DNA from: Squalus acanthias
Taxonomy: Eukaryota
DNA: 64,000 bases
Reading direction: 5' to 3'
NCBI GenBank assembly: GCA_030390025.1
Contig: CM059431.1
Location: 144,462,001 to 144,526,000 of the forward strand
Position 1 is the stretch's first letter; every line of letters starts with the position of its first letter. This document shows positions 7,331-31,332 of this stretch, in pieces. The notes beneath the pieces were generated by a model, which saw nothing but the letters and a program-made list of their open reading frames with translations, searched no databases and was not told the origin of the DNA. The translations under genes and the position numbers were made by a program.

Positions 7331-7342
7331 AGGGAGCTAGTA

Positions 7343-8120: not shown

Positions 8121-9303
8121 TTCCTCTCTGTTCGAACTTACTGATCTCCCAGTACATACCTGTTGGACCATTTATCTTTACTCATGAATTGCTACAGCTT
8201 TTGAACTCGGGATGCAACACAGGCAAGACTCCTGTTGCTGTTCATCCCGGGACTGGCATCGCTTGCCGGCACCTAGGTTGGTGGTAGCAGGGTCCCTTCC
8301 CTGTAGGAATTATTGAGCTAATTCGATTTTGACACCACGGTTTTTACGACAGCTTTGATGGTTACAATGTTGGTGCAAGGTTTATCACATTCAGCTTCAT
8401 AACTTGCATTGGTAGGATTATGAACTCAAGACCTCTGGATTGCGAGTCCAGTGCTATAACCGCTAAACTATCGTAGCATTCGTTAAAGTACCGAAATGAT
8501 CTAACACAATCACCATCTATTTCCAACCACAGAAGGAGAGGCTTTATCCACAGCATGTGGAGTTGATTTGACTAAAAGACCCAATGGGTTAAAGGTCAGT
8601 GTTGTCCCACTGCCGACTAATTCCTCCTCAGAGAGACGAATACTTTAGCTCCTCTCTCTGGGGCTGTTTTTTAACCCGGGTACCACAGGATAAAGAATCA
8701 GTATATGACTCTCTGCCCATCCCATTGTCCAACCAGAGAGAGGAGCCCTTCAGCCCTTCTCTCTGCTACTTGACTTGACCCCAATTCTCAGAGGGTGAAA
8801 GGTCAGTTTCTGATTCCTCCCAGTCTCTCTTAATGTATTACAGATTTCCATGATAACTGGGAGTTAACAACGTAAGAGAGCCCTAGGGCTGTAACTAAAC
8901 ATTTTTGTTGGATGAAGTACAAATATTGAACTGCTAATTACAATTTATAACGCTCAGAAACCCTAATAGTCTCCAGAAAATGAGTTGCATACTTAGGACT
9001 GAGAGGATGAGGAATTCTCTACCCCAGAGGGCTGTGGATGCTCAGTCGATGAGTATATTCAAGAGTAAGATCGATAGATTTTCGACAACAAGTTAATCAA
9101 GAGATATGGGGATAGGGAGGTAAAGTGAAGTTAATGTAGAAGATCAGCCATGATCTTACTGAATGGCGGAGCAGGCTCGAGGAGCTGTATGGCCAACTCC
9201 TGCTACTATTTCTTATGTTCTCAAACGCCATTGTATCATATACCAGAAACATAGTCTTACAGTATAATACATCTCCTTTGTTTTCATTTAATTAGATTGT
9301 CAG

Positions 9304-9536
9304 GAGATCATGTTTCGAGTTGAAGATATTCTAGAGGAACTGAAAGCCGATGAGCTGAAAAAGTTCAAACACCTATAGGCAGAGCATGGAATCCCGGCTG
9401 GGAAAATCGAGAAAGCTGACGCTTGCAATCTAGCGGATGTGATCAAGAAAACGTTTGGGGACGAAGAAATGCGTTTAGCTGTGATTATGAGTGCTCTAAA
9501 CAGAATTCCTCGCATGGATTTGTTGGAAATGTGCAG
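9304..9536 (+). pseudogene. Pyrin-domain (PYD) exon, copy A, inactivated
   Basis: Acceptor ...attagattgtcag|, ATG at 9310, MFRVEDILEELKADELKKFKHL*AEHGIPAGKIEKADACNLADVIKKTFGDEEMRLAVIMSALNRIPRMDLL. In-frame TAG at 9376-9378, and 1 nt shorter than copy B before the donor AG|GTAATT. Confidence 0.85.
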
Positions 9537-9729
9537 GTAATTTCCATTTTCCTCTTTTGCGATACTTTCTCGGTCGCCCAGTCACGACAAACAATTAGGA
9601 ATTAGAAGAATTTTGGCTTTGGGATGGTCAACTGTAGAGGAACAACAGAGGATAACAAATGCCGCTCGTTGGAGTTAAAAGTTCAGTATAATATCCAATG
9701 TTATGTTTTAAAAAAATATTCTGTTGATG

Positions 9730-10470
9730 TCAGCCTCGCTGGCAAAGCCACCATTTATTGACCATCCCTAATTGCCCTTGAGAAGGTCGTGGTGAGCCGC
9801 CTTCTTGAACCGCTGCAGTCCATATGTTGAGACAATCCCACAGTGCTGTTAGGGAGGGAGTTCCAGGATTTTGACAAAGCGACGATGAAGCAACGGTGAT
9901 ATATTTCCAATTTAGGTTGGTGTGTAACTTGGAGAGGAATTGGAGTTGATGGTGTTCACATACGTCTGCTGCCCTTGTCCTTCTCGGTGTTAGTGGTCGT
10001 GGATTGAAAGCTTCTGTCGAAAAATCCTTGGCGAGTTTTTGCAAACCATTTTATAGCTGCTACTCACAGCAGCCGCGATGCGACGGTGGTGGAGGGAGTG
10101 AATGTTCAATATGGTGGATGGAGTGCTCATCAAGCGGACTGTATTCTCGATGATGTCGAGATTCTTGAGTGTTGTTGGAGCTGCATCTCATACAGACAAT
10201 TGGAGAGTATTCCATCACACTCCTGGCTTGTGACTTGTGGGTGGTGAAAAGGCTTTGTGGAATCAGGAGGTGAGAAACTCGCCACAGAATAACACGCCTC
10301 TCACCTGCTCCAGCACCATGGCATTTATGTGGCTGGTGCAGTTGAGATTCTGGCCAAAGTAGCTCCATACGCTTTTGATGGTGGGCGAATTGGGCGATGG
10401 TAATGACATTGAATGTCAAGGGGAGATTGTTAGGCTCACTATTTTTGGAGATGTTCATTGCCCGGCACGT
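9730..10470 (-). mobile_element. Non-LTR retrotransposon (CR1-group) 3' fragment (paralog about 31520-32260)
   Basis: Remnant ILWRVSHLLIPQSLFTTHKSQARSVMEYSP resembles the LINE C-terminal motif LYKA.VRP.LEY. Confidence 0.75.
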
Positions 10471-10809
10471 GTGCGGTGCCACCAAATCATTCTTGGGATG
10501 CATCGATGCCGGCAAGGCCAGTATTATACACTTAAAGCCCTCAGGGCAACTCGGTATGAATAATATATGCTGCACTTCCAGTGTCGCCACGCCACAAGAG
10601 CAAATCAAAAGCAAGGACCATGATTAGCCGTCAGGCATTCTTGGCTAACACATACAGCCTTCAAATCCGGATGGTTCCCAAGAATGGCCTGTGCGGACAC
10701 AACGGAATTCCTGCCCAAATTACAGAGGCCCTACTGGGAGAATCCCAGAGGAATTATTTAGAGCAGAGAAGGTTACGTGAACATTTAATAGACGTGTTCA
10801 AAATCTGAT

Positions 10810-11220
10810 AAAGCATTTATTTAGCACCTTTCACAACCTCGGGGCTTGCCAAAGTGCTTTACAGACAATTAATTACTTTATGAAATGTAGTCACTGCTGT
10901 AATGTGACAGGGAACGTGACAGGCAATTTGCACACAGCAAGCTCCCACAAACAGCAATGGGATATTGACCAGATAATCTGTGTTCAGTGATGTTGGTTGC
11001 TGGATAAATAATGGCCAAGGAAACACGGGAGAATTCCCCTGCTCTACTTCGAATTAACCATGGGATATTTTACATCCCTCCGAGAGGGCAGATGTGACCT
11101 CGTGTTACCGTCTCATCTGAAGTACGGCACCACTGCTCGTGCAGCGCTTCAAGTTTCTGGAGCGGGACCTGAACCCACGACCTGCAGACTCGTGAGGGAA
11201 ATACACTGAGCTATGGCTGA
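10810..11220 (-). mobile_element. DeuSINE (SacSINE1-like) copy (paralog about 32615-33025)
   Basis: gcatttatttagcacctttcac (tail), gcaagctcccacaaacagcaat and gggatattttacatccctccgagagggcaga (Deu core), antisense to the 7343 copy. Confidence 0.75.
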
Positions 11221-11574
11221 TCCCCAGAATAAAGAAGGAGAAAGCGTTCACATTGGCAGGTGCGTCGAGAAACAAAAGGCACAGATTTAAGGCAATTGGT
11301 AAAACCAACAGAGGGGGTGATGAGGAGATGGAATTTTTACACAGCGAGTTCTTATGGTCTGAAATGCACTGCCTGAAAGGGTCGTAGAAGCAGATTCAAT
11401 AGGAACTTTCAAAAGGAAATTGGATAAATACTTTAAAAGGATAATTAATGTTGGGCTAGCGGAAAAGAGCACTGAGTGAGACTGATGGGTTAGCTCTTTC
11501 AAAGTGCCGACACGGACACGATGGGCCGAATCGTCTCCTTCTGTGCTGTATCATTATATGATTTCACTCCGATC

Positions 11575-14500
11575 TTAAGAACATAACAATATAAGAAATA
11601 GGAGTAAAATAAGGCCACTCGGCCCTTCGAGCCTACTCCGCCATTCAATAAGATCATGTCTGATCTTCTACGTCATCTGCACCTTCCTGCAATATTCCCA
11701 TATCCCTTAATTCCATTCATATTCAAATTCAATCAATCTCTGTCTTGAATATACTCAACGATTGAGAGTCCACAGCCCTCTCTGTGTTACAGAATTCCAA
11801 AGATTCAGCAGCCACTGAGTGAAGAAATGTCTCCTCATCTCAGTCCTAAATTGCTGACCCCTTATTCTGAGACTGTGATGTCTGATTATGGACTCCCCAA
11901 CCAGGGCAAACATCCTCTCTGCATCTACCCTGTCAAGTCATGTACGAACTTTGTATGTTTCAATGAGGTCACCTCTCATTCTTTTAAACACTAGAGAATA
12001 TAGGCCTTGTTTATTCAATCTCTCTCAATAGGACAACCCCCCATCCCAGGAACCAGTCTGCTGAATCTTCGTTGCACTCCCTCTATAGCAAGCATATCCT
12101 TCCTTAGGTAATGAGACCAAACTGTACACAATACTCCAGGTGTGGTCTCAGCAGGGCCCTATATAATTGCAGTAAGACGTCTTTAATCTTATACTCAAAT
12201 CCTCTTGTAATAAAGTTCAACATGCCATTTGCTTTCCTAATTGCTTGCTGCACCTGCATGTTAACTTTCAGTGATTCGTGTACAAGGACACCCAGGTCCC
12301 TCTGAACACCAACATTTCCCAATCTCTGATCATTTAAAAATAATCTGTTTTTCTAGATTTCCTACCAAAGTGGATAACTTCACATTTCTCCACATTTTAA
12401 GACATTTGCCATGTTCTTGCCCACTCACTTAGCCTGTCAATACCCCCTTGTAGCCTCCTTCTATACTCCTCACAATTTACATTCCCACCCAACTTTGTAT
12501 CATCAGCAAACTTGGATATATTACATTTGGTCCCCTCATCCAAATCATTGATGTAGTTACTGAATAGCTGAGGCCCAAGCACTGAACCTTGCGGTACCCC
12601 AGTAGATACAGCCTGCCAACCCGAAAATGAACCGGTTATTCCTACTCTCTGTTTCTGTCCGTTAACCAATCCTTACCCCCAATCCCATGAGGCCTAATTT
12701 TGATTAATAACCTCTTGTGTAGCGCCTTATCGAATGCCTTCTGAAAATCCAAATACACCACATTCCCTGGTTCCCCCTTATGTATTCTGCTAGTTACAAC
12801 ATGAAAAATTTCTAACAGATTTGTCAAACACGATTTCCCTTTCATAAATCCGGGTTGACTCTGCCCAAGCCTATTATTATTTTCTAAGAGCCCTGTTACC
12901 ACGTACTTAATAATAGATTCTAGCATTTTCCCTGCTACTGATGTCAGCTAACGGGTCTGTAGTTCACCGTTTTCTCTCCCCCTCCTTTCTTCAATAGTGG
13001 GGATACATTTGCTACCTTCAAATCCACGGGAACCGTTCCAGAATCTATGAATTTTAGAATTTTAGAGCCATAGAGTCATACAACACAGAAAGAGGCACTT
13101 CAGCCCATCGTCTCTGCGCCGGCCATCAAACCCGATCTATTCTCATCCCATTTACCAGCACTTGGTCCGTAGCCTTGTATGCTATGGCGTTTCAAGTGCT
13201 CATCTAAATTCTTCTTGAATGTTATGAGGGTTCCTGCCTCTACCACCCTTTCAGGAAGTGAGTTCCAGATTCCAACCACCCTCTGGGTGAAAAAGTTTTT
13301 CCTCAAATCCCCTCTAATCCTCCTGCCTCTTACCTTGAAACTATGTCCCCTGGCTATTCACCCCACTTCTAAGAGGAAAAGTTCCTTTCTATCTACCCTA
13401 TCTATGCCCCTCATAATTTTGTACACCTCAATCAGGTCCCCCTCAGCCTTCTCTGCTTTAAGGAAAACAACCCCAGCCTGTCCAGTCTCTCTTCATAGCA
13501 GAAGCACGCCGGCCCAGGTAACATCCTGGTGAATCTCCTCCGTAACCTCTCCAAAGCAATCACATCCTTCCTATAGTGTGGCGACCAGAAATGCACACAG
13601 TATTCCAGCTGTGGCCTAACTAGCATTTTGTACAGCTCCATCATAAGCTCCCTGCTATTATATTCTATGCCTCGACTAATGAAGGCAAGTGTCCCATATG
13701 CCTTCTTAACCACCTTATCTACCTGTCCTGCTGCAAACAGGGATCTATGTACATGCTCACCAAGGTCCCTCTGATCCTCTGTCCTTCCGAGGGTCCTACC
13801 GTTCATTGTGTATTCCCTTGCATTGTTAGTCCTCACAAAATGCATCACCTCACACTTTTCAGGGTTAAATTCGATGTGCCACTGTTCTGCCCATCTGACC
13901 AACCCATCTATATCGTCCTCTAGCCTGAGGCTTACTTCCTCGCTATTTACCACTCCACCAATTTTCGTGTCATCTGCGAACTTACTGATCATATCTCCTA
14001 CATTCATATCTAAATCATTAATGTACACTACAAACAGCAAGGGACCCAGCACCGATCCCTGCAGTACACCACTGGACACCAGTCATCCAGTCACAAAGAC
14101 AACCTTCGTCCGTCACCCTCTGCATCCTGCCACTAAGCCAATTTTGGATCCAATGTGGCAAATTGCCCTGGATCCCATGGGCTCTTACCTTGTTGACCAG
14201 TCTCCCATGCGGGACTTTGCAACCGCCTTACTGAAGTCCATGTAGACTACATCAACTGCACTACCCTCATCCACACACTTAGTCACACCCTCGAAAAATT
14301 CAATCAAATTGGTTAGACATGACCTCCCCCCTGACAAAGCCATGCTGACTATCCTTGATTAATCCTTGCCTCTCCAAGTGGAGACTATTTCTGCCCCTCA
14401 GAATGTTTTCCAATAATTTCCCTACCATTGATGTTAGGCTCACTGGCCTGTAATTACCTGGTATATCCCTACTACCCTTCTTGAATAATGGTAATACGTT

Positions 14501-17500
14501 AGCTGTCCTCCAGTCCTCTGGCTCCTCCCTTTTGTCCAGAGAGGTTCTGAAAATTTGTGTCAGAGTCCCTGCAATCTCCTCCATTGCCTCAAATTGCAGC
14601 CTGGGATACTTCTCGTCTGGGCCTGGGGATTTGTCCAATTTTGATCCCGCTAAAACCGCTAGTACCTCCTCCCTCACAAAGCTAATTTGTTCAAGTATAT
14701 CACAATCCGCCTGCCTGATTTCTATGCCTACATTGTCCTTCTCCATAGTGAACACAGATGCAAAATGTTCATTTAAAACCTCACCTACATCTTTTGGCTC
14801 TACACACAGATTGCCATTTTGGTCCCTAATGGGCACTACTCTTTCCTTGTTTATGCTCTTGCCTTTAATATACTGATAAAACACCTTTGGATTTTCCTTT
14901 ACTTTGCCTGCCAGTGTTTTTTCATGCCCCCTCTTCGCTCTCCTAATTTCTTTTTTAAGTACCCCGCTGCACTTTTTATACTCCTCTATGGCTTCCAATG
15001 TATTTAGTCCTTTGTATCTGCCAAAAGCATCCTTTCTTTTCCTAATCCATTTTTGTATATCCCTTGAAATCCATTTTGGAAAAGGACAACCACTATCTTT
15101 ATAGCCACCTCTGTCGAAACCCTAGCATGCAGGCTATCAGGTCCAGGGGATTTATGGGGTTTCAGTCCCATTAATTTCTGGAGTAATTTTTTTTTGCTCA
15201 AACTAATTTCTTTCAGTTTCTCATTCTCACGAGATCCTTGGTTCTACACTATTTACGGGAAGTTTTTTGCGTCTTCTTCCATGAAGACAGACACAATATA
15301 TTTGTTTAATTTCTCTGCCATTTCCTTATTCCCCATTATAACTTCTCCCGTCTCAGCCTGTAAGGGACCCACATTTACTTTCGCTAATCTTTTCCTTTTT
15401 ACATACGTATAGAAGCTTTTACAGTTTGTTTTAATGTATCTCACTAGTTTACTCTCATATTCTATTTTCCATTTCTTTTCCGAATTCTGCATCCTCCTTT
15501 GCTGAGTTCTAAAATCCTCCCAATCCTCAGGCTTACTACTCCTTTTGGCAAAATTATAAGGCTATTCCTTTGATCTAATACGAGCTTTAACTTCTCTTGT
15601 TAGGCAAGGTTGGACCACTTTTCCTGTGGTGTTTTTGTGCCTTAAAGGAATGTATATTTGTTGTAAGTTATGTATTAATTATTTAGATGCTAGCCATTGC
15701 TTATCTATCATCATACCTTTTAATGTTGTTTCCCAATCTACCTTAGACGATTCGCCCCTCATACCTGTTTCGTTTAGATTTAAGAACCTAGTTTCGGATT
15801 GAACTCAATCGCTTTCAAGCTCAATATAAAATTCTAGCTTCTTATGGTCACTATTTCCTAAAGGCCCCTTTGCTAAAAGATTGTTAATTGACCCTTTCTC
15901 ATTGCACAACACTAGATCGAAAATAGCCTGTTCACTAATTGGTTTCTCCACATACTGATCTAGAAAACTATCTTGCATACATTCCATGAAATCGTCCTCC
16001 ACACTATTACTGCAAATTTGGTTTGCCCAGTCTATATGTAGATTAATTCCCCCATGATCACTGTATTACCATTTTACATGCGCCTCTAATTTCCTGATTT
16101 ATACACTGCCCTACATTTCAAAAACTGTTTGGGGGCCTATGAACAACTCCCACCAATTTTTCCTGCCCCTTGATGTTTCGTCGTTACATCCAAACTGATT
16201 ATACTACTTGATTTTCGGAGCTAAGATCCTTTCTCTCCGCTGTCTTTATCATATCCTTTATTATCAGGGCTACCCCTCCTCCTTTTAAATTTCGCCTATC
16301 TTTTCTAAAAGTTAAGTATCCTGGAATATTTAGTTCCCAAGCTTGGCTACTTTGGAAACATATCTCCGTTATGCCTATAAGATCAAACCTGTTAATTTCT
16401 ATCTGCACTATTAATTCATCTATTTTGTTGGGAGTGCTTTGTGCAGTCAGATATAATACCTTTAGCTTTGACTTATTTCTATTTTCCCCTGATGTAACCT
16501 TAGTCACTGATGCCTTATTACCTTTGTTAGTCTCTCTGTCCCCTCCTGACCCACTCTAGTTATTTTTACCTAAAACTCTACTCTGCTCTAGAACCTTGAC
16601 ATTTCTCTCGTTGATTTAAAATGTACTCTGAATCCTCCCCCCTCCCCCCAACTTCATTTGTTTAAAGCCCTGTCTATTGCCCTAATTCATTGGTTCGCCA
16701 AGACACTGGTCCCAGCCCGGTTTAAGTGGAGCTCGTCCCAGTGGACACAGTTCCCTCTTTCCCCAGTACTGGTGCCAGTGCCCCATGAACTGAAACCCCT
16801 TCCTCCCACACCACTCTTTGAGCCACGCATTTAAATCTATAATCTGTTTGTCCCTATGCCAATTTGCGTGTGGCTCAGGTAACAATGCAGAGATCATTAC
16901 CTTTGAGGTTGTGCTTTTTAAATTGGATCGTAGCTCCTCAAACTCCCTCACCTGAACCTCATCCGTAGTTATAACTACTTTGTTGGTTCTCAGGTGGACC
17001 ACGATGTCAGGTTCCTCCCCCTCCCACTGCAAGTTCTTATCCAGCCACCAGGAGATGTGTTTTAATCTGGCAAGGGGGAGGCAACACAATCTATGGAACT
17101 ATATGTCGCGGCTCCAGAGAACAGTATCTATCACCCTGACTATACTGTCACTTACCACAACTACATTACCTTTCATTCCCCTCACTTGAATGACCTCCTG
17201 CATCATGGTGCCGTTGTCAGCCTGCTCATCCATCCTGCAGGCTTTTCCCTAAACCACACAGGCAGCAAGAATCTCATACCTGTTGAACAAGGGCAGAGGA
17301 TGAGGCTCCTCCAGCACTGCACCTGTGGTCCCCTTACCTGCCTGAGTTGCAGTTACACCCTTCTGTCCCTGACCACTAACCAGACCTGTAAGACTAAGGA
17401 TCAAAGTGTCCAGGTAACTCTCCCCCTTCCTGATGCCCCGCATTGTCTGAACCTCAAAATCCAGCTCAAAACTCTGAGCTGAAGTTCCTCAAGATGCAAG

Positions 17501-18250
17501 CACTTACTGCACACCTGGTTGTCCGGGATCACAATTCTCTCCACAAACTCCCACGTGCTGCAATTGCGGCACACCACCTGAACAGACATCCCTATATGAC
17601 CTTGTTTTAATTAATTAATTGTAATTAAATTTGTATTTAGTTAACTTAGTTTACAGTGTAGTTTCTTGACTACTTACTTGATCTAGATTAAGTTAAGGGT
17701 ATTGAAATTAAATATCTACCTGTAACATAAATCACTCCAATTAGTATAGGCAAAAAGCATCAACTCCATCCCTCTCTTCTCCGAATTCCCACGTTTTCCA
17801 AATTCCCCAAAAAACACACTGTTCAAGTCCACACCGTTTAATCCCGCTCTGTGCAGACCGCTCTGTGCTCTGCAGAAATGTTTATTTTTATACTCAAGGA
17901 GCCTCACCCAATTTACAAGTGCTGACTCAGCTCCCCTGCTCCTGGTGATTAGCGCCGATTCAAGACAAACACTTACAGCTGACTGACAGTGAACTGCCAC
18001 TGGCAGGCAGCTTCTGCAAACTACAATTTTTAAATTTCTGGCGTAAAATGAAAATCTTGAAGTAAATTTCACTTCTTACAACTTCTACTAACGTAATACT
18101 TAACAGAAATTCCCACTTTCACCAAATTCCCAAATAAAGCACTCTGTTCAAGTCCACTCCGTTTAATCCCGATCTGTGAAGATAGCGCTTTGCTTCTAAT
18201 TAGGGATTTTCTCTTCTCCGTGACCAATTTCTCGCCAGTCTTTTGAACCA
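11575..18250 (-). mobile_element. Degenerate near-full-length CR1 LINE (5'UTR, ORF1 zinc finger and SGNH esterase, ORF2 APE and RT), split by a nested CR1
   Basis: ORF1: MSVQVVCRNC...VCSKCLHLEELQLRV (17589-17401) and PDIVVHLRTN...LNAWLKEWCGRKGFQFMGHW (17089-16682). APE at 16507-15805; [12 protein letters not shown]...[10 protein letters not shown] at 12669-12397; tail taagaacataac. Confidence 0.92.
13055..15070 (-). mobile_element. 5'-truncated CR1 LINE of a second family, nested in the outer CR1
   Basis: Has its own tail (catagagtcata) at about 13070, RT 13432-14079 with FADD, and PGNYRPVSLTS at 14300-14998. The outer element resumes at about 15071. Confidence 0.92.
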
Positions 18251-18324
18251 TCGATGAATTGTGGTTTATGATATTTTCCTACTACTCCCTCTTTCGGTGC
18301 CCTTTCATTTCTTCAGCCTTATTG

Positions 18325-18845
18325 CATAGGATTACATGGGATATACGGCACAGAAACAGGCCATTCAGCTCAACCCGTCCATGCCGGCGTTTATGCTACA
18401 CTCGAGCCTCCTCCCGTCTTTCCCCATCTAACCTATCAACATAACCCTCTATTCCCTTCTCCCTCATGTATTTAATTAGCCTCCTTTAAATCGATCTACA
18501 CTATTCGCTTCAACCACTTCCTGTTGTAGCGAGTTCTACATTCTCACCACCCTCTGGGTAAAGAAGTTTCTTCTCAATTCCCTGTTGGATTTCTTGGTGA
18601 CTATCTTATATTTATGGCCTCCAGTTATGCTCTTCCCCACAAGAGGAAGCATTCTCTCTGTAACCACTCTATCAAAAGCTTTCATAATTTTAAAGACCTC
18701 TATTTGGCTACCTCTCAACATTCACTTTTCAAGAGAAAAGAGACCCAGCCTGTTCATTCTTTGCTGATATTTTTTCCCTCTCATTTCTGCTATCATACTT
18801 GAAAATCTTTTTTTAACCTTCTCCAGAGCCTCTATATCCTTTTTT
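18325..18845 (-). mobile_element. CR1 LINE 3' fragment
   Basis: LRGSQIEVFKIMKAFDRV...RRNFFTQRVVRM plus tail cataggattacatggg. Confidence 0.85.
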
Positions 18846-19159
18846 ATAATAATCGGGACAACCGAAAACGACTTAGCTAAGTTACAGTTTGGGAGCTAGA
18901 AATAGACCATCACGGAGGGGAGACGGTCAAAGAGGGAACTTGCTGTAAAGTACCACAAACAGCGATTGCGTTTAATGCAGTTTCGCCCCATCTTTGTCCT
19001 CGTGGGTTTACTTCCGATGATGCAGACCGAATCCGTACCTCAACAATGCATGCGAGTTGACATAGTGCAAGAGATACGCTTTGTCCAGAGTGGATGTAGA
19101 TGGTTACAGCAGAATAGCAAAGGGAGCAGGAAGTATAGACTATGTTCTTCTCTCACATC

Positions 19160-19302
19160 TACCAGTTCTGACAAAAAGTCATCGACCTGAACCATTAACT
19201 CTGTTTCTCTCTCCACATGTGCTGCCTGGCCTGCTGAGTATTTCCAGCATTTTCTGTTTTTATTTCAGATTTCCAGCATCCGTAGTATTTTGCTTTTGTA
19301 TT
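19160..19302 (+). mobile_element. Penelope pseudo-LTR fragment with a decayed hammerhead
   Basis: agttctgacaaaaagtcatcgacctgaaccattaactctgtttctctctccac...; same family as 2119-2729, with both core boxes mutated (CUGACAA, GAACC). Confidence 0.8.
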
Positions 19303-19454
19303 ATGACTAGTTGTCATATTGAATTCAATAAGAAATGTCAAAATGGACGGGCGCATCGCCAAAGACCCAGGCACCTCTTCAGGACTGAGTGTCTGACAAT
19401 CTCAGTCGTGCTGAAGCTCCAAAGGCATCCTCGTCAACATCTGGGGGTTCCAGC

Positions 19455-19780
19455 CCTGTATCTAGCTAAACTCTCCGTTCCTCCAATTCTGGCCTCTTGT
19501 GCATCCCCACTCCCTTTTCCCCACCATTGGCGTGCGTGCCTTCACTGCCAAGGCCCTAAGCTCTGAAATCCCCCCCCCCCCCCCCCACGCTAAGCCTCCC
19601 CACCTCTCTCTGTCTCTTCTCCTTTAAGGCTCTCCTTAAAACCCAATGATTGCTTGATTAGTGTTTCTAATGGCTGCTTCTTTCTCTCGGTGTCATTTCT
19701 GACTGATTACACCTCTGTGAACCCTATTGGGAAGTTTTTACTACGTTTAAGGCGCGATATAAATTAAAGTTGCTGCTGCT
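19455..19780 (+). mobile_element. L2-type LINE 3' end
   Basis: ctccgttcctccaattctggcctcttg...cctttaaggctctccttaaaacc...ttttactacgtttaaggcgcgatataaattaaagttgctgctg matches my recall of the shark L2 terminus. Confidence 0.7.
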
Positions 19781-20007
19781 AGAAGTTGGAAAAGCCTCAG
19801 ACGAATCGGACTGACATAATCCTACTCAGAGAGCCAACATCATAAACTCCATTCCACCGGCAGGGTAGACATACCAGAGGAACATGAATGATGGATTACA
19901 GTATGGGAGTCTCAATATTGACTCGAGACCCTTCACAAGTCCTTGTGAACACATGTGCAATTCCAGTGGTACAGTACTGAGATTCGCTGATGTCCTTATC
20001 TTTGCAG

Positions 20008-20149
20008 TGTAACGATGCACCTGACGGTCAGGAGAAGAAATGGATACAATTTTATACTTTTAAATCATCAAACTGGCCCAAAGACAGAGCTCCTCAGCAA
20101 CAGGTCCTACTACAGAGTGAGCCAATCGAAATGAATTACGCACCTTCAG
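20008..20149 (+). CDS. Candidate internal coding exon, 142 nt, phase 0 to phase 1, unknown product
   Basis: Acceptor gatgtccttatctttgcag| and donor CAG|GTGAGT. Only the phase-0 frame is open: CNDAPDGQEKKWIQFYTFKSSNWPKDRAPQQQVLLQSEPIEMNYAPS. Confidence 0.45.
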
Positions 20150-20335
20150 GTGAGTGCTCAAAGATTATGCTGAATCTTCCTCAACCAGATATTTCACGCA
20201 ATCAGAACGCTGTCATTCCACAGTACACACTGCAGGCAAGGTGCGCCAAAGGTGGAAGAGGAGGATGTGTAGATGGTGGATGGGCTCCCGATCAAGTGGA
20301 TTGCTTTGTCCTGGATAGCGTCGAGCTTCTTGCGT

Positions 20336-20527
20336 GTAGTTGTTTGTGATGATTCTCCTCCTGTAGAGGTCTGTGATGATTCTAATCCTGTAGTGGTCTG
20401 TGATGATTCTACTCCTGTAGTGGTCTGTGATGATTCTACTCCTGTAGTGGTCTGTGATGATTCTACTCCTGTAGTGGTTTGTGATGATTCTACTCCTGTA
20501 GTGGTCTGTGATGATCCTACTCCTGTA
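20336..20527. repeat. 27-bp minisatellite, 7 copies (gtagtggtctgtgatgattctactcct)
   Basis: Near-perfect tandem copies; produces the VVVCDDSTP ORF repeat. Confidence 0.95.
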
Positions 20528-20544
20528 TTTGATTCTGTGACGGT

Positions 20545-23500
20545 ATCTGGAGTGTGACATCAGCAGTGAGGCACCTATAGTGCGAAATCAAGTGTCTGAT
20601 ACCAGGATTGTTCTATCTGGAGTGTGACGTCAGCTGAATGACAATTGAAGTATGTCATCAGGAGTTTGAGAGCTGGAGTGTGATATCTGCTGTGTGACAT
20701 CAGCAGTATGGGATCTGGAATGTGACATCTGTATTGTAACATCTGGAGTGTGACAAATGTAGTGTGATACCAGGTATGTACGTTCTTGAAACTGAAATTT
20801 TGAGTATGACATCTGGAGAGTACTATCAGGAGTGTGACATCTGGAGTGTGCCACCAGGGGTCTGACAGTTGGAGTGTAAGATCTGGAGTGTGACTTCAGC
20901 ATTGTGACATCTGGAGTGTGTCATCAGGAGTGTGAGAGCTGGAGTTTGTGATAAGGAGTGTTTCATTATGAGTGTGACATCTAGAGTGTGACATCTGGAT
21001 TGCGAGATAAGAAGTGTGACGTCAGTAGTGTGACATCAGCAGTGTGACATCAGTAGTGTGACATCAGCAGTGTGACATCTGGAGTATGAAATCTGGAGTC
21101 TGACCTCTGTTGTGTGACAACTGTATTGTGACATCCAGAGTGTGGCAAATGGTGTGAGAGATCTGGAGTGTGAGATCTGGAGTGTGACATCAGCATTGTG
21201 ACATCTGGAGTGTGACATCAGGAGTCTGACAACTGAAGTGTGAAATCTGGATTTTGACTTCAGCAGTGTGACATCTGGAGTTAGTCAACAGGAGTGTGTG
21301 AGCTGGAGTGTGAGAGCTGGAGTGTGACATCTGCTGTGTGGCATCTGCAGTGTGAAACCTGGAATGAGACATCTTGTGTGCACTGGCTGGAACGTGGCAT
21401 CTGTTTTCTCACATCTGGGGTGTGACATCTGGGATGTGACAGCTGAAGTTTGAAATCTGGAGTGCAACTAAGCTGTGTGACATCTGGAGCGTGTCATCAG
21501 GAGTGTGAGAGCTGGAGTGTGCGATCTAATGTGTGACATCAGCAGTGTGAGATCTGGAATGTGACATCTTGTGTGTATCATCTGGAACGTGCCATCTGTA
21601 TTTTCACATCTGGAGTGCGACATCTGTAGTGTGACACCAGGTATGTACTTTCTGGAAGGTGACATGTTGCGTATGACATCTGGAGTGTAATATCAGGAGT
21701 ACGACATCAGGAGTGTGACATCAGGAGTTTGACATCATGAGTGTGAAAGTTGAAGTTTAATATCTGGAGTGTGACATCTGGATTGCAAGATACGAAGTAT
21801 GACATTATGAGTGTGACATCTGGAGAGTGACATCAGTAGTATGACATCAGCAGTGTGACATCTGTAGTGTGACATCAGATATGTAACTTCTGGAACGTGA
21901 CATGTTGCGTCTGTCATCAGGAGTGTGACATCAGGAGTGTGACATTTGGATAGCGAAATAAGAAGCATGACCTTATGAGTAAGACATCTGGAGAGTGACA
22001 TTAGTCTTGTGATATCAGCAGTGTGACATGTGCAGTGTGACATCTGGAGTATAACATCTGGCGTGTGACATCTGCAGTGTGACATGAGTGTGAAATCTTG
22101 AGTTTGATACCTGGAGTGTGACATCTATAGGGCTACATCATGAGTGTGACATTATGAGTGTGACATTATGAATGTGACATTGAGTGTGACATTATGAGTG
22201 TGACATTATGAGAGTGACATCAACAGTGTGACATCAGCAGTGTGACATCTGCAATGTGCCATAAGGTGTTTGACAACTGTATAGTGACATCTAGATTTTG
22301 GCATCTGGTGTGTGACATCTGGAGTGTGTCATCAGCTGTGTGAGAGCTGGAGTGTGAGATAAGAAGTGTGACATCAGGACTGTGACATCAGTTGTGTGAC
22401 ATCTGGAGTGTGACATCTAGAGTGTGGTATCTGGTGTTAGAGTAATGGAGTGTGGCTTCAGCAGTGTGACATCTGGAGCTTGTCATCAGGAGTGTGAGAG
22501 CTGGATTGTAAAATCTGCTGTGTGACATCAGTCGTGTGAGACCTGCAATGTGATATCCTGATTGTACCAGCTGGAAAGTGACATCTGTATTCTTGCATCT
22601 GGGGTGTGACATCAGGGGTATGACAGCTCCAGTCTCATATCTGGAATGTAACTTCAGCTGTGTGACATCTGAAGTGTGTTATCAGGAGTGTGAGAGCTGG
22701 AGTGTGAGATCTACTGTGTGCCATCAGCAGTGTGAGATCTGGAATGTGGCATCTTGTGTGCACCACCTGGAACGTGACATCTGTATTGTCACATCTGGAG
22801 TCTGACTGTAGTGTGACACCAGGTAGGTACCTTCTGGAATGTGACCTGTTGTGTCTGACATCAGGTGTACGACATCAGGAGTACGACCTCAGGAGTGTGA
22901 CATCAGGAGTGTGACATCATGAGTGTGGAAGTTGAAGTTTAATATCTGAAATGTGACATCTAGATTGCGAGATAGGAAGTATGACATTGAGTGTGACATC
23001 TGGAGAGTGACATCATTAGTATGACATCAGCAGTGTGACATCTGGAGTGTGACATCTGTAGTGTGACACCAGATAAGTAACTTCTGGAACGTGACAAGTT
23101 GCCTCTGACATCAGGAGTGTGACATCAGGAGTTTGATATCTGGAATGTGACACTTGGATTGCGAGATAAGAAGTATGACCTTATGAGTGCTACATCTGGA
23201 GAGTGACATCAGTCGTGTGATATCAGCAGTGTGACATGTGGTGTGTGACATCTGGAGAATCACATCTGGCATGTGACATCTGCAGTGTGACATGAGTGTG
23301 AAACCTTGAGTTTGATATCTAGAGGGCTACATCAGTGCTGTGACATCAGCAGTTTTCCATCTGGAGTGTGACATCTGGAGTGTGAAAACTGCAGTGTACC
23401 ATAAGGTGTGTGACATCTGCATTGTGACATCATGATGGTGAAATCTGGAGTTTGATATCTAGAGGGCTACATCAGTGCTGTGACATCAGCAATGTTCCAT

Positions 23501-23990
23501 CTGGAGTGACATCTGGAGAGTGACAACTGCAGTGTACCATAAGGAGTGTGACATCTGGATTGCGACATCTTAAGTGTGGCATCTGGTGTGTGAGATCTGA
23601 AGTATGACATCAGGCGTGTCGCATGTGGTTTGTGAGAGCCGGAGTGTGAGATCTGCTGTGTGACATCAGCATTATGACATCAGCATTGTGAGATCTATAA
23701 TGTGACATCTTGAGTGTACCGGCTGGAACGTGACATCAGTATTCTCACATCTGGAGTATGACATCAGTGGTCTGACAGATGGAGTGTGACATCTGGAGTG
23801 TGACACCAGGTATGTATCTTCTGGAACGTGACATGTTGCGAATGACATCTGGAGATTAAAATCACGCATGTGACATCTGGAGTATAACAACTGGAGTGTG
23901 ACAGCTGCAGCGTGCCCTAAGGATTGTGAAATCTGGATTGTGACATCCAGAATGTGGCAGCTGGAGTGTAAGAGCTGGAGTGTGATATCA
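20545..23990. repeat. 14-bp tandem satellite GGAGTGTGACATCT/CA (array 2, about 3.4 kb)
   Basis: Same monomer as array 1. It shares variant blocks such as cttctggaacgtgacatgttgcgaatgacatctggag (about 372-408 and about 23818-23854). Confidence 0.95.
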
Positions 23991-24922
23991 TGTGACAATC
24001 TGTGTGTATATATTTGGTTCCTGTTGAGCAATTCTATGGGAATCGCCATTCTTTGGTTCAAATTACAACGGAGGCAGACATATCATTGCACATCTTCCCT
24101 TCTTTGTCCCTGTGATTCTCAGATCTGATTGAGACAAAGTCATTGTAAAGGGCAAGGAGGGGGAGAAATTCCCAAAATGACTACACGTCATAATCAGTAT
24201 GATTCCAGCCCAACAGGGAAGGAAACAGGGCTGGATCAAGTTCTGGGGAATGAAATGCGGCAACTGCAGAATGTTTCTTCGGGAGCACTTCTGGGAAAGA
24301 ATTATCACAATATCATTAGGTTCAGATTAGCCATGGAATGCAAAAAACAACAATCAAAGTTGAAGACACTCATCTGGAAGAGGGCTAATTTCAGTGAGTT
24401 GAAAGTGGATCATGCCCAGGTGGATTGGAAACAAGGATTATTAGGTAATACAGTAATGGGCAATGGGTGGAGTACAAGGAGGAGATAGTTCAGGCTCAGA
24501 CTAAGGGGGGAAAGAAGGGCATCCAATGCTAGAGCTTCCTGGATGACTGAAGAAATTAAGACTAAAATGAGGCATTGGATAAATATGATGCTCTTGATAC
24601 CATAGAGATTCAAGCAGAATACAGAAAGTTTAGAGAGAAACTTTACAGGAAAATAAAAGGTGAAAATATTAGTTGGTAACATAAAAAAGAACACAAAAGT
24701 CTGTTAAATACATATGAAGATTTAAATGATCGTCAAAGGAAGGCCAAACTTCTTGTCGAGGTAGGCGGCATGGTTGAGTTATAAATAAGAATTTTCATCT
24801 GATTTCACTAAATAGGAGGATGCTGCCAATGTCACGGTAAAAGAGGAGGGGTGGAGAAATTGGATGGACGGGTCTAGTGTGTTAAGTGTCAACACACATT
24901 GTCAGCAAGACAATAACTATTG

Positions 24923-24980
24923 TGACGTCATCGACGAGGCAGTTCCGGTGCATTCCGGGAAAAATACCAGTGTGACGTCA
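24923..24980. promoter_or_regulatory. CRE-ETS-ETS-CRE promoter-like module (copy B)
   Basis: TGACGTCA at 24923-24930 and 24973-24980 with two TTCCGG between them. Confidence 0.55.
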
Positions 24981-26185
24981 GAGATCTAGCACCAGGGTCA
25001 CGAAACTCAGCCGCCCGGCTCCACAGCGCTGCTTCTGCAGGATAACCGGGGCTGAATGTCCCCCAATGGGGCACGGGGGAAATGCCCAGACAGGAAGAGC
25101 CCAGGCTGGGGCTCAGTCTCGGCTGCAGTGGGACACTGACAATTACACTCAGTATTCCTGGATTTGGAAGTAACATTACCCAGTTTTCCTGCTCAGTTTC
25201 TGTGCACAGTGACGTAGCTGGGCAGTGAACCTGTTTGGGTTCAGGATAATGACAGGATCTGTTCAGCTGTGATTGTTCCCATCAATTAATAGGGTTCAAT
25301 ACCCACTCTATATGGTCACCCAGGGAGAGTATCCTACTGAGGGTGGCTCCTGAGGATGTTCCACCCGTGAAATCGGACGGCACCATTTCATGCAGTGCAT
25401 TCCAGAACATAACAATTAAATGGCTCTATTTTAATGGGGGAGCAGGAAAAGAGAGACCTGGGATTTCACATACACTCATCTTTGAAAGTGACATGATAAG
25501 ATGATAATATTAGAGGCATATAATACAAAAGCAAATAATTTATGCTAAACCTGAATAAATCACTGGTTAGGCCTCAGTTCTGGCACCACGCTTCAGGAAG
25601 GACGTCAAGGCCTTGGAAAGTGTTAGGAGGAGATTTATTAGAATGGTAATAGGGATGAGGGACTTCACTTATGTGAAGACGCTACAGAAGCTGGGATTAT
25701 TCTCCTTAGAGAAGAGAAGGTTTTGGGGAGATTTAATTGAGTTGTTAAAAATTCTGAGGGGTTTTCATACAGTAAATGAGAAATTGTTTCAACTGGCAGG
25801 AGGGTCGGCTACCAGAGAATATGTTCTGGAATACATTACATGAAAGGATGTTGCAAGCAGATTCCTCATTAAATTTCAATAGGGAATTGGATATATAATT
25901 GAAATTGCAGTGCGATGGGGAACAAGCTGGCGAGTGGGACTAGTTGGAAAGCTCTTTCAAAGAGTAGGACACAGACACGATGGGCCGAATGGCCGCCTCT
26001 GTGCTGTATGATTCTACGATTCAAATCAGAGCGGGTGGGGTTGTAAATCAAAGCTTTGAAAACTCATCTCGCATCAAAACGACATGAATCAGCAATTGGG
26101 AAATGTAAAGGAAACACTAGGAGTCGGATGATACTGCACTCAAACTTGATATTTGAGTAACATTTGAGTAGGACAGCGAGATCCA

Positions 26186-26353
26186 GGCGCACATGCGTGC
26201 TGACACTTTCTGGAGGGCTCCATTCAGAGCCTGAGGAACGGGGAGCAAGGCACAGTGACCGGACCAATCCCCCAGCGCCAGAGTCTTGACTGGGGACGGG
26301 AGCCGCTCAGACGGGATCGAGGGTTGCTTCAGTCTTTTCAATCGTCGAATTGG
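26186..26353 (+). other. Candidate promoter and non-coding first exon of the PYD gene (copy B)
   Basis: Paralog of 4188-4354; donor GTGAGT at 26354-26359. Confidence 0.45.
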
Positions 26354-27858
26354 GTGAGTTACTGAGAATGTCTGAGTGTGGGCGTGAAAAAGGTCGTCGG
26401 GAAGGGAAGGAGAGCATGAAAGTGATGGAGAGGCGAAAGAGATGTGAAGGTCAAAGGGGCGCCTTAGTTATTTGGACTCGGAGCCTAATGTTAATATATG
26501 CCTGCATTAAGTGCAGAACACTTCATAAAAATCTGTGGCGGTTTCTGTGAATTAGAATCATAGAATACTGTCGCAGATTCTTACAGCACAGGAGGAGATC
26601 ATTCGGCCCATCGTGCCTGTGCATCTTTTTCATAGAGCAACGCAAATAGTCCCACTCCCCTGCCCAGTAATATTTTCAATGCGTATATATATCCAATTCC
26701 CGTTTGAAAGTTAATATTGAATCTGATTCCTTCGCCCATTCACGCAGTGCATTCCAGATCACAACAACTCGCTGCATAAAAACAATCTCTACATCACCCT
26801 CCCCTTTTTGTGCCAATTATCTTAAATCTGTGACTTGTGGTTATCGACACATATTCTTCAGACGATGTCCTAACCTTCCGTGTATCGATTAATAAATACC
26901 TTTAATTTTACTTAACAGGTGTAAATTGTGGATCAAGTTTTATTTTGTGGTTTCAAAATATCAGTGAGAGGAAGAATCTTTAATTTGAAAGTATAGCGTG
27001 CCCAGGTGCTTTAATATTACAAAGCGACCGTTATAAATAATATCATTGTTAAGAAATAGCGGGGATATATATGGATGTTTTTAAATACAAATAAAAGTGA
27101 AGTAACACACATTTCCAAACACTTATTATTCCAATTTGGCGGTTGTAATTCGTCAGCAAGCGTGAAAAACTGTTGCATCGCGAGCCTCTGCTGACTGCGG
27201 TTTGCAACCTGCGGAATGGCGTTAAAAGTAGGTCACATTTCTCCATCCACGGACACCGGTTCTCGGTAGAAATTAGACGGCGAGCAAAGTTGAAAAATGA
27301 AACCTAACGCGGAGAATCAATCAAAACTAAAATTTCAAAACTGCTCAGGACCCCATAATCCTCAAGTGGAGGTTCGGGCGATTTGCACCTCAGTGCCATT
27401 TTAATCAAAACACAGCGGGTTTGAATAAACGTTCTAGTGAAATAAAACTGAAGGGGTCTCAACATCTGTGTGCACGAGCTAATACAAAGTAAAAGCAAAA
27501 TGCTGCAACTAGCAGAGACAAAAGTAAAGGTTTCCCTTTGTGGGCAAGTCACTTCCTCCAACTTTGGCTCGATTTGCATAAGTTTTTTTTTGCACTTCAC
27601 ACGTAGGTAGCACTTGCTGTGTCTGAAGCAACCTCTGATAAGGGACTAGGGTCTTTGTCAATTTAACTTGTTAAATACCAGTCTGTATAGGAGTGCAGAA
27701 GATGTCGATGGTTAAAGGTCAGATTTCAACATCCTGCTGCTTCTCTTCCACAGACAAACGGACACATGCTCACTCAGAATCATTCACTGATATACAGAAG
27801 CTTCCTTTATCTTTCTCTCTCTGTCAGTCTCTCTGTCTCTCTTACATACACAGATATA

Positions 27859-27940
27859 AGAAGTCGCACAACACCAGGTTATAGTGTAGTGCGACTTCTC
27901 ATTTTTGTCCACCCCAGTCCAACGCCGGCATCTCCGCATC
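27859..27940. mobile_element. 82-bp fold-back insertion, probably a Penelope pseudo-LTR terminus of a second family
   Basis: 15-bp TSD acatacacagatata at 27844-27858 and 27941-27955. Inverted arms agaagtcgcacaacac / gtgtagtgcgacttct. Empty site in copy A at 5844-5858. Confidence 0.7.
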
Positions 27941-30900
27941 ACATACACAGATATAGATAACAGTCACTCTGATATACACACACATTGACTTTCTCTACGT
28001 CTCTCGCACAGACACAATGACTGACAGTCACTCGCTTCCAATATCTCTGTCTCTCACACTACAATCATTCACTTACTGATATATACACGCATTCTGTCTC
28101 TTTGTGTAATTTTCTCTCTCTCTTACACATACACACTCACTCAAGTTACTCAGTGAGGTACATATGCATCCTTTGTCTCTGTCTGTGTGTGTGTGTGCCT
28201 ATCTCTCACACACACTCAGAGTAACTCATAAATACACGCGCGTTATCTCTCTCTCTCTCTCACACACACTCAGAGTAACTCACAAATACACACGCGTTAT
28301 CTCTCTCTCTCTCTCACACACATGCACACACACATACACAGAGTCACTCACAGCATTCTCTTTCGCTGTCTCTCTGTCTCTCACTCACTCACTCACTCAC
28401 ACACTTACACACACACAAAGGAGATCATTAAGTATCGCAGCCTGATTCATTTAGAACACAGGAGCCGGAAGGAGCTCTATCGGATCGTTGCACCTTGTAC
28501 ACCTTACTAAAATATAATTCGGTCCTAAGACAATAGAAATTCTTTCCAATTTAAACAGCACAGATTGCAAACAGACCTTGCTTCACAGTGAGCCTTTATT
28601 TTATTGTGGCCTAGTCTTCCAATCATATAACGTTACGGTACAGACGGAGGCCATTCGGCCTATCGTGTCTGTGCCGGCCGAAAAAGAGCTATCCTGCCTA
28701 ATCCCACTTTCCAGCTCTTGGTCCATAGCCTTGTAGGTTACGGATCTTCAAGTGCATATTCAAGTACATTTTAAATGCGATGAGAGTTCCCGCCTCTACC
28801 ACCCTTTCAGGCAGTGAGATCCAGAACCCACCACCCTCTGGGTGAAAAAAATGTCTCCTCAACTCTCCTCTGATCCTTTTACCGATTACTTTAAATCTAC
28901 ATCCCCTGGTTATTGAAGTCTCTGCAAAGGAAGTAGGTCCTTATTATCTACTCTATCTAGGCCCTTCCTATCCACTCTATCTAGGCCCTTCCTATCCACT
29001 CTATCTAGGCCCCTCATAATTTTATGCACATTAATTAAGTCTCCCCTCAGCCTTCTCCAATCCAATCTTTCATGATATTTAAAATTTTCCAGTCCTGGCA
29101 ACATCCTCGTAAATCTTCTCTGAAAACCTCTCTGATACAGTTGCATCTTTCCTGTAATGTGGTGTCCAGAACTGCACGCAGTATTCTAGCTGTGGCCTAA
29201 CTAGCTTTTATACAGTTTATACCGCTCTTATATTCTATCCCTCGACTAATAAAGGATAGTATCCCGTATGCCTTCTTTACCACCTTATCTACCTGTCCTG
29301 CTACATTCAGGGATCTGTGGACATGCACTCCAAGGTCCCTCCGTTCCTCTACACTTCTCGGTATCCTACCATTTATTGTGTATTCCCTTGCTTTGCTATT
29401 CCTCCCCAAATGCATTACCTCACACTTCTCCAGATTGAATTCCATTTGCCACTTGTCTGCCCACCTGACCGGTCCATTGATAGCTTCCTACAGTCTGCTG
29501 CTTTCTTCTTCATAACCAACCACACGGACAAATTTTGTATCTTTTGCAAACTTGTTAATCAAGCCCGCTACTTTGAAGTCAAAATCATTGATATATACCA
29601 CAACAAGCAAGGGAGCTAGTAGGTTGCAGCTGTGGCTGAGTGGGTACCAAATCTCACCGCTGAATCAGAATGTCATAAGTTCAATCCCCCCCGCCCTTGC
29701 TGAGACTTTAAACATACATCCCGTATAGCCTCTGAGGTGGACGTAAAGAATCCCACGGCACTATTGGAAGAGGAAATAGGAGTGTTTTTCCAGGCATCCT
29801 AGCTAATAATTATCCCTCAACCAGCAGTGTTCAAACAGATGAGCTGGTCATTTACTTTGCTGTTGTGTGCTGAAGCTTGCATTTCCTCTCTGTTCGAACT
29901 TAGTGACTTCCAATCCATACCTGTTGGACTATGTATCTTTACTCTTGAATTGTTCCAGCTTTTGGTCTCGCGATGCAACACAGGCAAGACTCCTGTTGCT
30001 GTTCACCCCGGGACTGGCATCGCTTGCCGGCACATAGGTTGGTGGTAGCAGGGTCCCTTCCCTGTAGGAATTATTGAGCTAATTCGATTTTGAAACCACG
30101 GCTTTTACCACAGCTTTGATGGTTACATTGTTGGTGCCAGGTTTATCACATTCAGCTTCATAACTTGCATTGGTAGCATTATGAACTCAAGACCTCTGGA
30201 TTGCGAGTCCAGTGCTTTAACCGCTACACTATCGTAGCATTTGTTAAAGTACCGAAATGATCTAACACAATGACCATCTATTTCCGACCACAGAAGGAGT
30301 GGCTTCATCCACAGTATGTGGAGTTGATTTGACTAAAAGACCCAAACGGTTAAAGGTCAGTGTTGTCCCAGTTCCGACTAATTTCCCATCAGAGAGACGA
30401 ATACTTTAGCTCCTCTCTCTGTGGTTGTTTTTTTAACCCGGGTACCACAGGATAAAGGATCAGTATATGACTCTCTGCCCAGCCTATTGTCCAACCAGAG
30501 AGAGGAGCCTTTTAGCCCTTCCCTCTGCTACTTGACTTGACCCCACTTCTCAGAGGGTGAAAGGTCAGTTTCTGATCCATCCCAGTCTCTCTTAATGAAT
30601 TGCAGATTTTCTTGATAACTGGGAGCTCACAACGCAAGAGAGCCCTAGGGCTGTAACTAAACATTTTTGTTGGATGAAGTACAAATATTGAACTGCTAAT
30701 TACAAGTTATAACCCTCAGAAACCCTAATAGTCTCAAGAAAATAAGTTGCATACTTAGGACTGAGATGAGGAGGAATTTCTTCACTCAAAAGTTAGTGAA
30801 TCTTTGGAATTCTATACCCCAGAGGGCTGTGGATGCTCAGTCGATGAGTATATTCAAGAGCAAGATCGATAGAGTTTCGACAACAAGTTAATCAAGAGAT

Positions 30901-31104
30901 ATGGGGATAGGGAGGTAAAGTGAAGTTAATGTAGAAGATCAGCCATGATCTTACTGAATGGCGGAGCAGGCTCGAGGGGCTGTATGGCCTACTCCTGTTA
31001 CTATTTATTGTGTTCTTAAACGCCATTGTATCATATACCAGAAACATAGTCTTACAGTATAATACACCTCCTTTGTTTTCATTTAATTAGATTGTCAGGA
31101 GATC

Positions 31105-31332
31105 ATGTTTCGAGTTGGAGATATTCTAGAGGAACTGACAGCCGATGAGCTGAAAAAGTTCAAACAAATATTGGTAGAGTATGGAATCCCGGCTGGGAAA
31201 ATCGAGAAAGCTGACGCTTGCATTCTAGAGGATGTGATCAAGAGAAAGTATGGGGCCGAAGAAAAGATTTTATCTGTGATTAAGTGTGCTCTACGCAGAA
31301 TTCCTCGCATGGATTTGCTGCTAAAGTTGCAG
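31105..31332 (+). CDS. Pyrin-domain (PYD, death-fold) coding exon, copy B, intact, 76 aa
   Basis: Exon 31099-31332 between a polypyrimidine ...gtcag| acceptor and a CAG|GTAATT donor; ATG with A at -3. MFRVGDILEELTADELKKFKQILVEYGIPAGKIEKADACILEDVIKRKYGAEEKILSVIKCALRRIPRMDLLLKLQ fits the PYD pattern LE.L..eELKKFK..L...IP...lE.AD...L......YG (compare ASC LENLTAEELKKFK). Read-through into the intron gives 98 aa ending at 31401. Confidence 0.85.

Follow-up and report, generated by a model that had tools for sequence, protein, structure and literature searches.

Why should two copies of one exon differ almost only in ways that change the encoded protein? The question is raised by a stretch of 64,000 nucleotides from the shark Squalus acanthias (assembly GCA_030390025.1, contig CM059431.1, positions 144,462,001 to 144,526,000 of the forward strand; here called the window), which carries two copies, A (9310..9536) and B (31105..31332), both on the plus strand, of a first coding exon for a predicted pyrin domain (PYD). 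We find an excess of amino-acid replacements that is confined to one branch of the exon family's tree. As its cause we tentatively favor a single bout of positive selection that acted on the exposed pyrin surface of cut-off, pyrin-only copies of a membrane-protein gene, followed by drift and decay; we rate this at somewhat below an even chance, and the episode is one that we infer from the pattern rather than demonstrate.

Over codons 1 to 72 (9310-9525 against 31105-31320), 20 of the 72 codons differ through 22 changed nucleotides in 216. Eighteen of these codons are missense, one is nonsense (TAG in A at codon 23, 9376-9378, against TTG in B) and one, codon 72, is synonymous. Our recount is identical to that of the first-pass annotation of the window, whose list of charge changes and of untouched motifs (LEEL, ELKKFK, GIPAGKIEKAD, RIPRMDLL) also matches the sequence. 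The exon extends to codon 76, and past codon 72 A has three further base differences from B as well as a 1-nt deletion in codon 75 (9532-9533), which leaves the exon one nucleotide short at its GT donor (9537-9538). B is an intact 76-codon open reading frame (ORF) running from the ATG to a CAG|GT donor. A is disabled, being broken twice, by the stop and by the frameshift, and the loss of this copy that the first-pass annotation had proposed is borne out. In the full 76-codon exon, first, second and third codon positions hold 8, 16 and 1 of the differences, respectively, and the Nei-Gojobori counts (Sd 1, Nd 23) give a ratio of nonsynonymous to synonymous rates (dN/dS) of 6.9. The ratio of transitions to transversions is 6:19 in the exon and 334:422 in the background, which is not significant (p=0.063); A<>C and G<>T changes are enriched in the exon (13/25 vs 204/756, p=0.011), for which we found no explanation.

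The two exons lie in the units of a segmental duplication, which provides the background for this comparison. The unit carrying A (1366..14591, plus strand) and the unit carrying B (23991..36583, plus strand) differ at 781 of 12,024 aligned columns (6.5%), so that the exon, at 10.2%, has diverged about 1.6 times as far. Close to the exon the background is uneven. The 1.5-kb flanks differ at 113/1424 and 69/1486 positions and the 300-nt flanks at 10/299 (upstream, 3.3%) and 17/299, with a sharp drop in divergence just upstream of the exon to the 10/299. The near-flank divergences given in the first-pass annotation were about right by eye but are locally low compared with the unit average. What sets the exon apart is the reading frame. 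The probability that position 3 receives at most one of 25 differences is 5e-4, and positions 1 and 2 carry 24 changes in 150 sites, where 9.75 are expected. Among the non-coding 228-column windows of the duplication, 5 of 11,341 have at least 23 mismatches at the equivalent of positions 1 and 2, and 0 of them also have at most one at the equivalent of position 3. The reading-frame pattern of the A/B differences exceeds chance.

The identity of the exon is supported by sequence and by structure prediction. B scores 39.8 bits (E=5.1e-10) against the Pfam PYRIN profile (PF02758, cut-off 22.9), and A scores 45.1 bits in the scan of its own genome. A profile of the intact copies matched the solved structures of the PYDs of NLRP6 (E=6.4e-8), NLRP12 (1.2e-6), NLRP3 (2.7e-5) and ASC (2.3e-4). 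The AlphaFold2 model (predicted local distance difference test, pLDDT, 85.1) has six helices at residues 4-9, 13-25, 30-33, 38-49, 52-65 and 69-75, the third of which is short, and it superposes on the PYDs of NLRP12, NLRP3, NLRP6 and ASC with template modelling (TM) scores of 0.80-0.89. Foldseek ranks PYD chains highest against the model and places a few DED entries further down. Judged by profile match and predicted fold, the exon thus encodes a pyrin domain of the death-fold superfamily, as had been proposed. Its likeness to the PYDs of NLRP proteins and ASC consists in this sequence match and in the predicted six-helix fold; according to the alignment, it is about 5 residues shorter than these between helices 2 and 3.

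A collection of paralogues from the species' own genome, which the first-pass annotation had suggested, yielded eight exons of this PYD family in the 3.7-Gb assembly: A, B, P2, P3, P4, O6, O7 and O8. All eight are among the 11 matches to PYRIN in the genome above the Pfam cut-off. The remaining three are unrelated single PYD exons on three other contigs and are candidates, by sequence, for the species' ASC-like or NLRP-like partners. We refer to A, B and P2-P4 as group I, to B, P2, P3 and P4 as the B clade, and to O6-O8 as the O group. P2, P3 and P4 are located 2.5 Mb away and their proteins are 96, 87 and 87% identical to B, respectively; for the O group the identity to B is about 55%. O7 and O8 are on the contig of the window itself, upstream of A and B at a distance of 70-130 kb. 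The exons of the intact group-I copies differ from those of O6/O7 at 27% of their bases, with zero indels in 228 nt, and the ATG is kept in seven of the eight copies.

The distribution of the changes over this family locates the excess. A differs from each of B, P2, P3 and P4 by 10-12.5% in the exon and by 4.6-8.4% in the flanks, while the exon divergence of B from P2, P3 and P4 equals their flank divergence. The tree of the flanks (general time-reversible model with gamma-distributed rates, GTR+G) has 100% bootstrap support for both splits, with branch lengths of 0.0405 for A, 0.0186 for the B/P2 stem, 0.0106 for the P3/P4 stem and 0.014-0.020 for the tips. We counted silent (S) and non-silent (N) exon changes on its branches by joint maximum-likelihood (ML) reconstruction. 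The stem of the B clade (X) carries S=1 and N=11, A carries S=0 and N=7 plus its stop, and the B/P2 and P3/P4 stems carry S=0 and N=5 each. At the tips the counts are S=0, N=0 for B, S=1, N=3 for P2, S=1, N=2 for P3 and S=2, N=3 for P4; the long branch to the O group has S=11.2 and N=39.8. A and X together form the one branch of the unrooted tree that separates A from the other four copies, and on this A+X branch the 20 changes compare with 9.2 expected from the flanks (P=0.0014) and at least 19 non-silent changes with 7.2 expected (P=1.9e-4). The four internal group-I branches together have S=1 and N=28 (p=0.007). All other group-I branches carry 22 changes, with 22.4 expected, at an N:S of 18:4, as in dead sequence. 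Since the excess lies on A+X while the remaining group-I branches are neutral, the signal is one episode on one unrooted branch, a single episode on A versus the other four copies and not the ongoing diversification that had been suggested.

On which side of this branch the burst occurred is not assignable. The ML reconstruction places 12 changes on X and 8 on A (7 replacements and the stop), and by eye the unambiguous sites split 7 and 6, with 7 sites in three states. The flanks split the A+X branch into 0.0213 and 0.0092; the same alignment, however, gives an implausible length of 0.1275 for the P3/P4 stem, which points to a misaligned block. Three other sharks allowed us to polarise amino-acid changes on the deeper branch, of which 11 belong to the group-I stem and 10 to the O stem while 9 are ambiguous, and we reject faster evolution on one group stem, as neither is faster.

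To which gene did the exon originally belong? Word-indexed protein searches with B found no match in either length class, and an HMMER profile search returned 121 proteins. The closest of these, from Heterodontus francisci, Chiloscyllium punctatum/plagiosum and Carcharodon carcharias, have a single PYD each and are all named 'uncharacterized'. Their PYD is N-terminal, and a linker connects it to a membrane domain of CD20-like type (PF04103); the CD20 profile (gathering score 27.9) matches the shark relatives P0003 at 31.8 bits and P0006 at 34.0 bits. In tblastn searches with the shark proteins, O7 (144.400-144.428 Mb, outside the window) has seven coding exons, all in order over about 22.6 kb, and O6 and O8 have most of the corresponding exons in order. 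O7 is apparently a complete seven-exon gene that encodes a PYD and a linker ahead of a four-pass membrane domain of CD20-like type, and O6-O8 look by their exon content like PYD + CD20-like genes or gene remnants. The transmembrane exon 4 occurs genome-wide beside O6, O7 and O8 only; no membrane exons were found near A and B in the whole window, nor within 10-20 kb downstream of P2-P4. A and B are therefore to be seen as derived fragments of the PYD + CD20-like family, not as full members. The likeness to the MS4A/CD20-like tetraspan family accordingly belongs to the shark relatives, which pass the CD20 profile, and to O7 with its matching membrane exons; A and B are without them. We know of no MS4A protein with a death-fold domain, and our literature search found no paper combining 'PYD' and 'CD20-like'; broader searches brought up nothing specific to sharks.

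The first-pass annotation had taken the module to be of inflammasome type. NLRP/ASC inflammasome components join their PYD to NACHT-LRR or CARD domains, whereas the full-length shark relatives carry the predicted CD20-like helices instead and are, by profile, PYD + CD20-like tetraspan proteins. In the 91 plus-strand ORFs of at least 45 aa downstream of the two exons (31.3-43 kb and 14.6-20.5 kb), a Pfam search detected no NACHT, LRR or CARD domain, and the sole match was one sub-threshold RFC1. The module therefore does not derive from an NLR/ASC-type gene. One further architecture, a multi-PYD gene with tandem exons spliced together, was considered and rejected as the main reading: in the three closest shark proteins there is one PYD, placed at or near the N-terminus, almost all copies have kept their ATG, and the units are 22-33 kb apart. 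Four distant database proteins (P0001, P0002, P0004, P0008) have 5-15 tandem PYD stretches per chain; these may be real or may be tandem PYD exons chained by gene predictors. The tail of two of them is presumably FIIND/CARD-like.

A second exon and a satellite mark where the fragments end. An exon-2-like linker exon of unit A (20008..20149, plus strand, 142 nt) still has an AG acceptor and a GT donor, and its homologue in the full-length O-group genes is their exon 2. Such an exon, likewise with splice sites kept, also lies downstream of P3; among the group-I copies it was found only for A and P3. About 400 nt past exon 2 of unit A, an array of a 14-bp satellite (20545..23989) occupies the place of the gene's remainder, and a satellite of the same kind is present upstream of the unit (87..1165). 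The distance from exon 2 to the start of the 14-bp satellite is about 400-480 nt in A as well as in P3 (where the satellite lies 15.6-20 kb downstream), from which it follows that the truncation point coincides with the satellite array and that the truncation, being common to the two, is older than their split. The group-I copies are thus cut-off units of a PYD + CD20-like gene. With membrane exons lacking near A and B, B and its relatives are at most candidate genes; none of the datasets listed as matching 31000-31600 is of RNA, and DNA runs of two samples share 60-65% of its sampled words.

Exon 2 is itself more diverged between the groups (A and P3 vs O6-O8) than its surroundings, with differences at 43/130 positions versus 34/212 in the 70-150 nt of intron on each side (p=3e-4). 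Selection on the exon-2 protein was rejected as an explanation, since the differences are spread evenly over the codon positions (15/13/15), which speaks for conserved splice flanks around an unconstrained linker. Upstream of the PYD exon, the 14 nt before the ATG (9296-9309, 31091-31104 and the equivalent place in O6-O8) are conserved between both exon groups, and the 200 nt upstream differ between the groups by about 20%, compared with 27% in the exon. The 14-nt stretch contains a possible acceptor (..TGTCAG|GAG.TC ATG) 6 nt upstream of the ATG and in frame, and it could be a constrained 5' untranslated region or promoter, or reflect alternative use as an internal exon. Opposite the PYD exon of each copy runs an antisense open frame of 93-100 aa (9300-9581 and 31095-31397, both on the minus strand), which in A stays open despite the broken sense frame; it is probably a by-product of composition.

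How much of this could be reached without selection? Under neutral decay, the cut-off units would have been dead on arrival and have drifted without constraint, and the skew between A and B would be a chance extreme picked by a reader in search of oddities. A number of results weigh on this side and against positive selection. Outside the A+X branch, both the rate and the N:S of group I are those of dead sequence, with 18:4 close to the neutral 78:22. Measured by raw divergence, the exon does not stand out from the rest of the duplication, since 7.3% of the overlapping and 5 of the 55 non-overlapping 216-column windows have at least 22 mismatches; the claim that the exon is more diverged than its introns holds against the unit average but not against these most diverged windows. 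Between the groups, the 27% exon divergence is about that of the alignable flanks (25-29%), at a dN/dS of 1.0-1.6. Three of the eight copies have lesions: A with its stop and frameshift, P2 with ATG changed to ATC, and O8 with a frameshifting 1-nt deletion. Membrane exons were not found near the group-I copies, and exon 2 of B was not found anywhere in the window. The pairwise Fisher test on A and B reaches only p=0.033. Added to this is the fact that the burst cannot be placed on A or on X.

The codon tests, run with our own implementation on the eight copies and 76 codons, with stops and gapped codons masked and with low power, point the same way for the family as a whole. Under M0 the family-wide omega (dN/dS) is 1.30 and not different from 1 (p=0.36). 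M1a against M2a gives a likelihood-ratio test (LRT) statistic of 4.11 (p=0.13) with 17% of sites at an omega of 3.5, and the sites 51, 57 and 64, which have M2a posteriors above 0.8, come from this non-significant comparison. The diversifying selection across the family that the first-pass annotation had put forward is not found in these tests. A branch model with A+X as foreground gives an omega far above 1 (LRT 5.42, p=0.02) for a foreground that was picked post hoc, and it does not reach significance for A (p=0.069) or X (p=0.063) as single branches or for all of group I (p=0.095).

Even so, we consider neutral decay unlikely. It accounts poorly for the depletion of differences at position 3, for the near-absence of non-coding windows with a comparable bias towards positions 1 and 2, and for the surplus of non-silent changes on A+X. 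The changes also avoid the core of the domain. Positions with an apolar consensus vary less across the eight copies (15/34) than positions elsewhere (32/42, p=0.005), and of the 20 positions at which A and B differ, only 2 (42 and 49) fall into the core, defined as the 21 of 76 positions that are at least 80% apolar in 35 PYDs from other sources (p=0.046). The expectation that the changes would lie outside the buried core is thereby upheld. Overall, the PYD evolves at an approximately neutral rate with frame and core kept, which fits a fast surface on a conserved fold and is less expected for a long-dead sequence.

An excess confined to one branch and about 230 nt might also have been imported. 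In a gene conversion, a short tract from an older paralogue, now lost or unassembled, would have overwritten the exon of A or that of the ancestor of B, P2, P3 and P4. The setting is suitable, as the region is one of tandem duplicates and satellites, among which conversion is common, and the O group shows a third state at 7 of the 20 differing sites (P=0.054). An old family divergence at a dN/dS of about 1 predicts about 20% silent changes, and the 1 in 20 that is seen departs from this only at P=0.046. Yet no donor exists among the eight family copies in the assembly (all 9 candidates scored), and the changes that fall to A are intermingled, over the whole exon, with those that fall to the B-clade stem. 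With the upstream 300 nt at such low divergence, the tract would moreover have had to coincide with the exon, and the divergence at silent sites is below that of the flanks rather than above it. We regard a conversion as improbable. That assembly or consensus errors in A produced false differences is highly improbable: although its 7 unique residues, stop and 1-nt deletion rest on one assembled copy, all four B-clade copies have the same codon at 16 of the 20 differing codons (first 72), errors would not follow the reading frame, and the flanks of A fit a clean tree with full bootstrap support.

The episode of positive selection that we tentatively favor could have unfolded as follows. The starting point is a shark-lineage gene family, the full-length members of which encode a cytosolic pyrin domain that a linker ties to a CD20-like membrane domain with four passes. 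A and B are copies of its first coding exon, which runs from Met1 to a phase-0 donor and takes in the pyrin domain entirely. A segmental duplication that retained only exons 1 and 2 gave rise to the cut-off subfamily of A, B, P2, P3 and P4, in which satellite follows exon 2 in A and P3. Along the branch that joins A to the B clade's ancestor, the exon gained about twice the substitutions of its flanks, nearly all of them amino-acid-changing and outside the apolar core. Here positive selection would have given a new shape to the exposed surface of what had become a pyrin-only module, which might act on pyrin-pyrin assemblies as a decoy or regulator. Afterwards, the copies would have drifted at a neutral rate and some would have decayed, A through its stop and frameshift, P2 through loss of its start, and O8 through its frameshift.

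Such a course would resemble that of the primate pyrin-only proteins (POPs; POP1/PYDC1 and relatives), among which POP1, at a distance of about 14 kb from ASC, is regarded as a product of duplication (PMC3775265). The likeness is that of a one-exon PYD copied from a nearby parent without its other domains. In the shark, the parent-type genes O7 and O8 are on the contig of A and B, some 70-130 kb away from them, comparable to POP1 beside ASC, and a partial duplication of a PYD-bearing parent is found here too, with O7 as the parent type and A and P3 with exons 1 and 2 only. The parents differ, being ASC or NLRP-type genes for the POPs and a predicted PYD + CD20-like membrane protein in sharks. 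For the shark copies a transcript, a stop soon after the domain and a regulatory activity would all be putative, as is a POP-like role, and two of the five cut-off copies are broken. In its most far-reaching form, the proposal would be that a membrane-anchored PYD-MS4A/CD20-like receptor or adaptor family in sharks has, independently and from a different parent gene, produced pyrin-only derivatives on which positive selection then acted to change their shape, as a cartilaginous-fish counterpart of the primate POP decoys; this we consider unlikely.

The window also contains mobile and further repetitive sequence. A LINE-type (long interspersed nuclear element) reverse-transcriptase fragment on the minus strand (13432-15121) reaches into unit A and is collinear with a fragment downstream of the O-group genes. 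In a LINE-type element on the plus strand (43045-46012), a 669-aa open frame contains both an endonuclease and a reverse-transcriptase domain. Another LINE-type reverse-transcriptase fragment lies on the minus strand at 63479-64000. Two large arrays of a 26-bp satellite (50669-57234 and 58918-62224) comprise about 253 and 128 copies with 69-74% matches. Between these elements, an intronless ORF of 334 aa on the minus strand (48517-49521) encodes a predicted rhodopsin-type G-protein-coupled receptor (GPCR), 75-80% identical to shark proteins named 'probable GPR139' (GPR139-like). It has 2529 database matches at E<=1e-20, the best 120 of which are all elasmobranch, and this abundance points to a very large lineage-specific expansion. 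The shark setting named in the first-pass annotation agrees with these 120 best GPCR matches listed and with the closest PYD relatives, all of which are sharks or rays.

Death-fold signalling in cartilaginous fishes is poorly charted, and a PYD fused to a four-pass membrane protein is, to our knowledge, not a described architecture; if true, it would put PYD assembly at the membrane. Should the cut-off copies prove to be dead fragments, they would stand as a caution that a striking ratio of missense to silent changes in one exon pair can accompany neutrality across the family. If they are expressed, they would offer a compact case for finding the selected surface residues of a PYD, and would indicate that pyrin-only regulators arise repeatedly by partial duplication.

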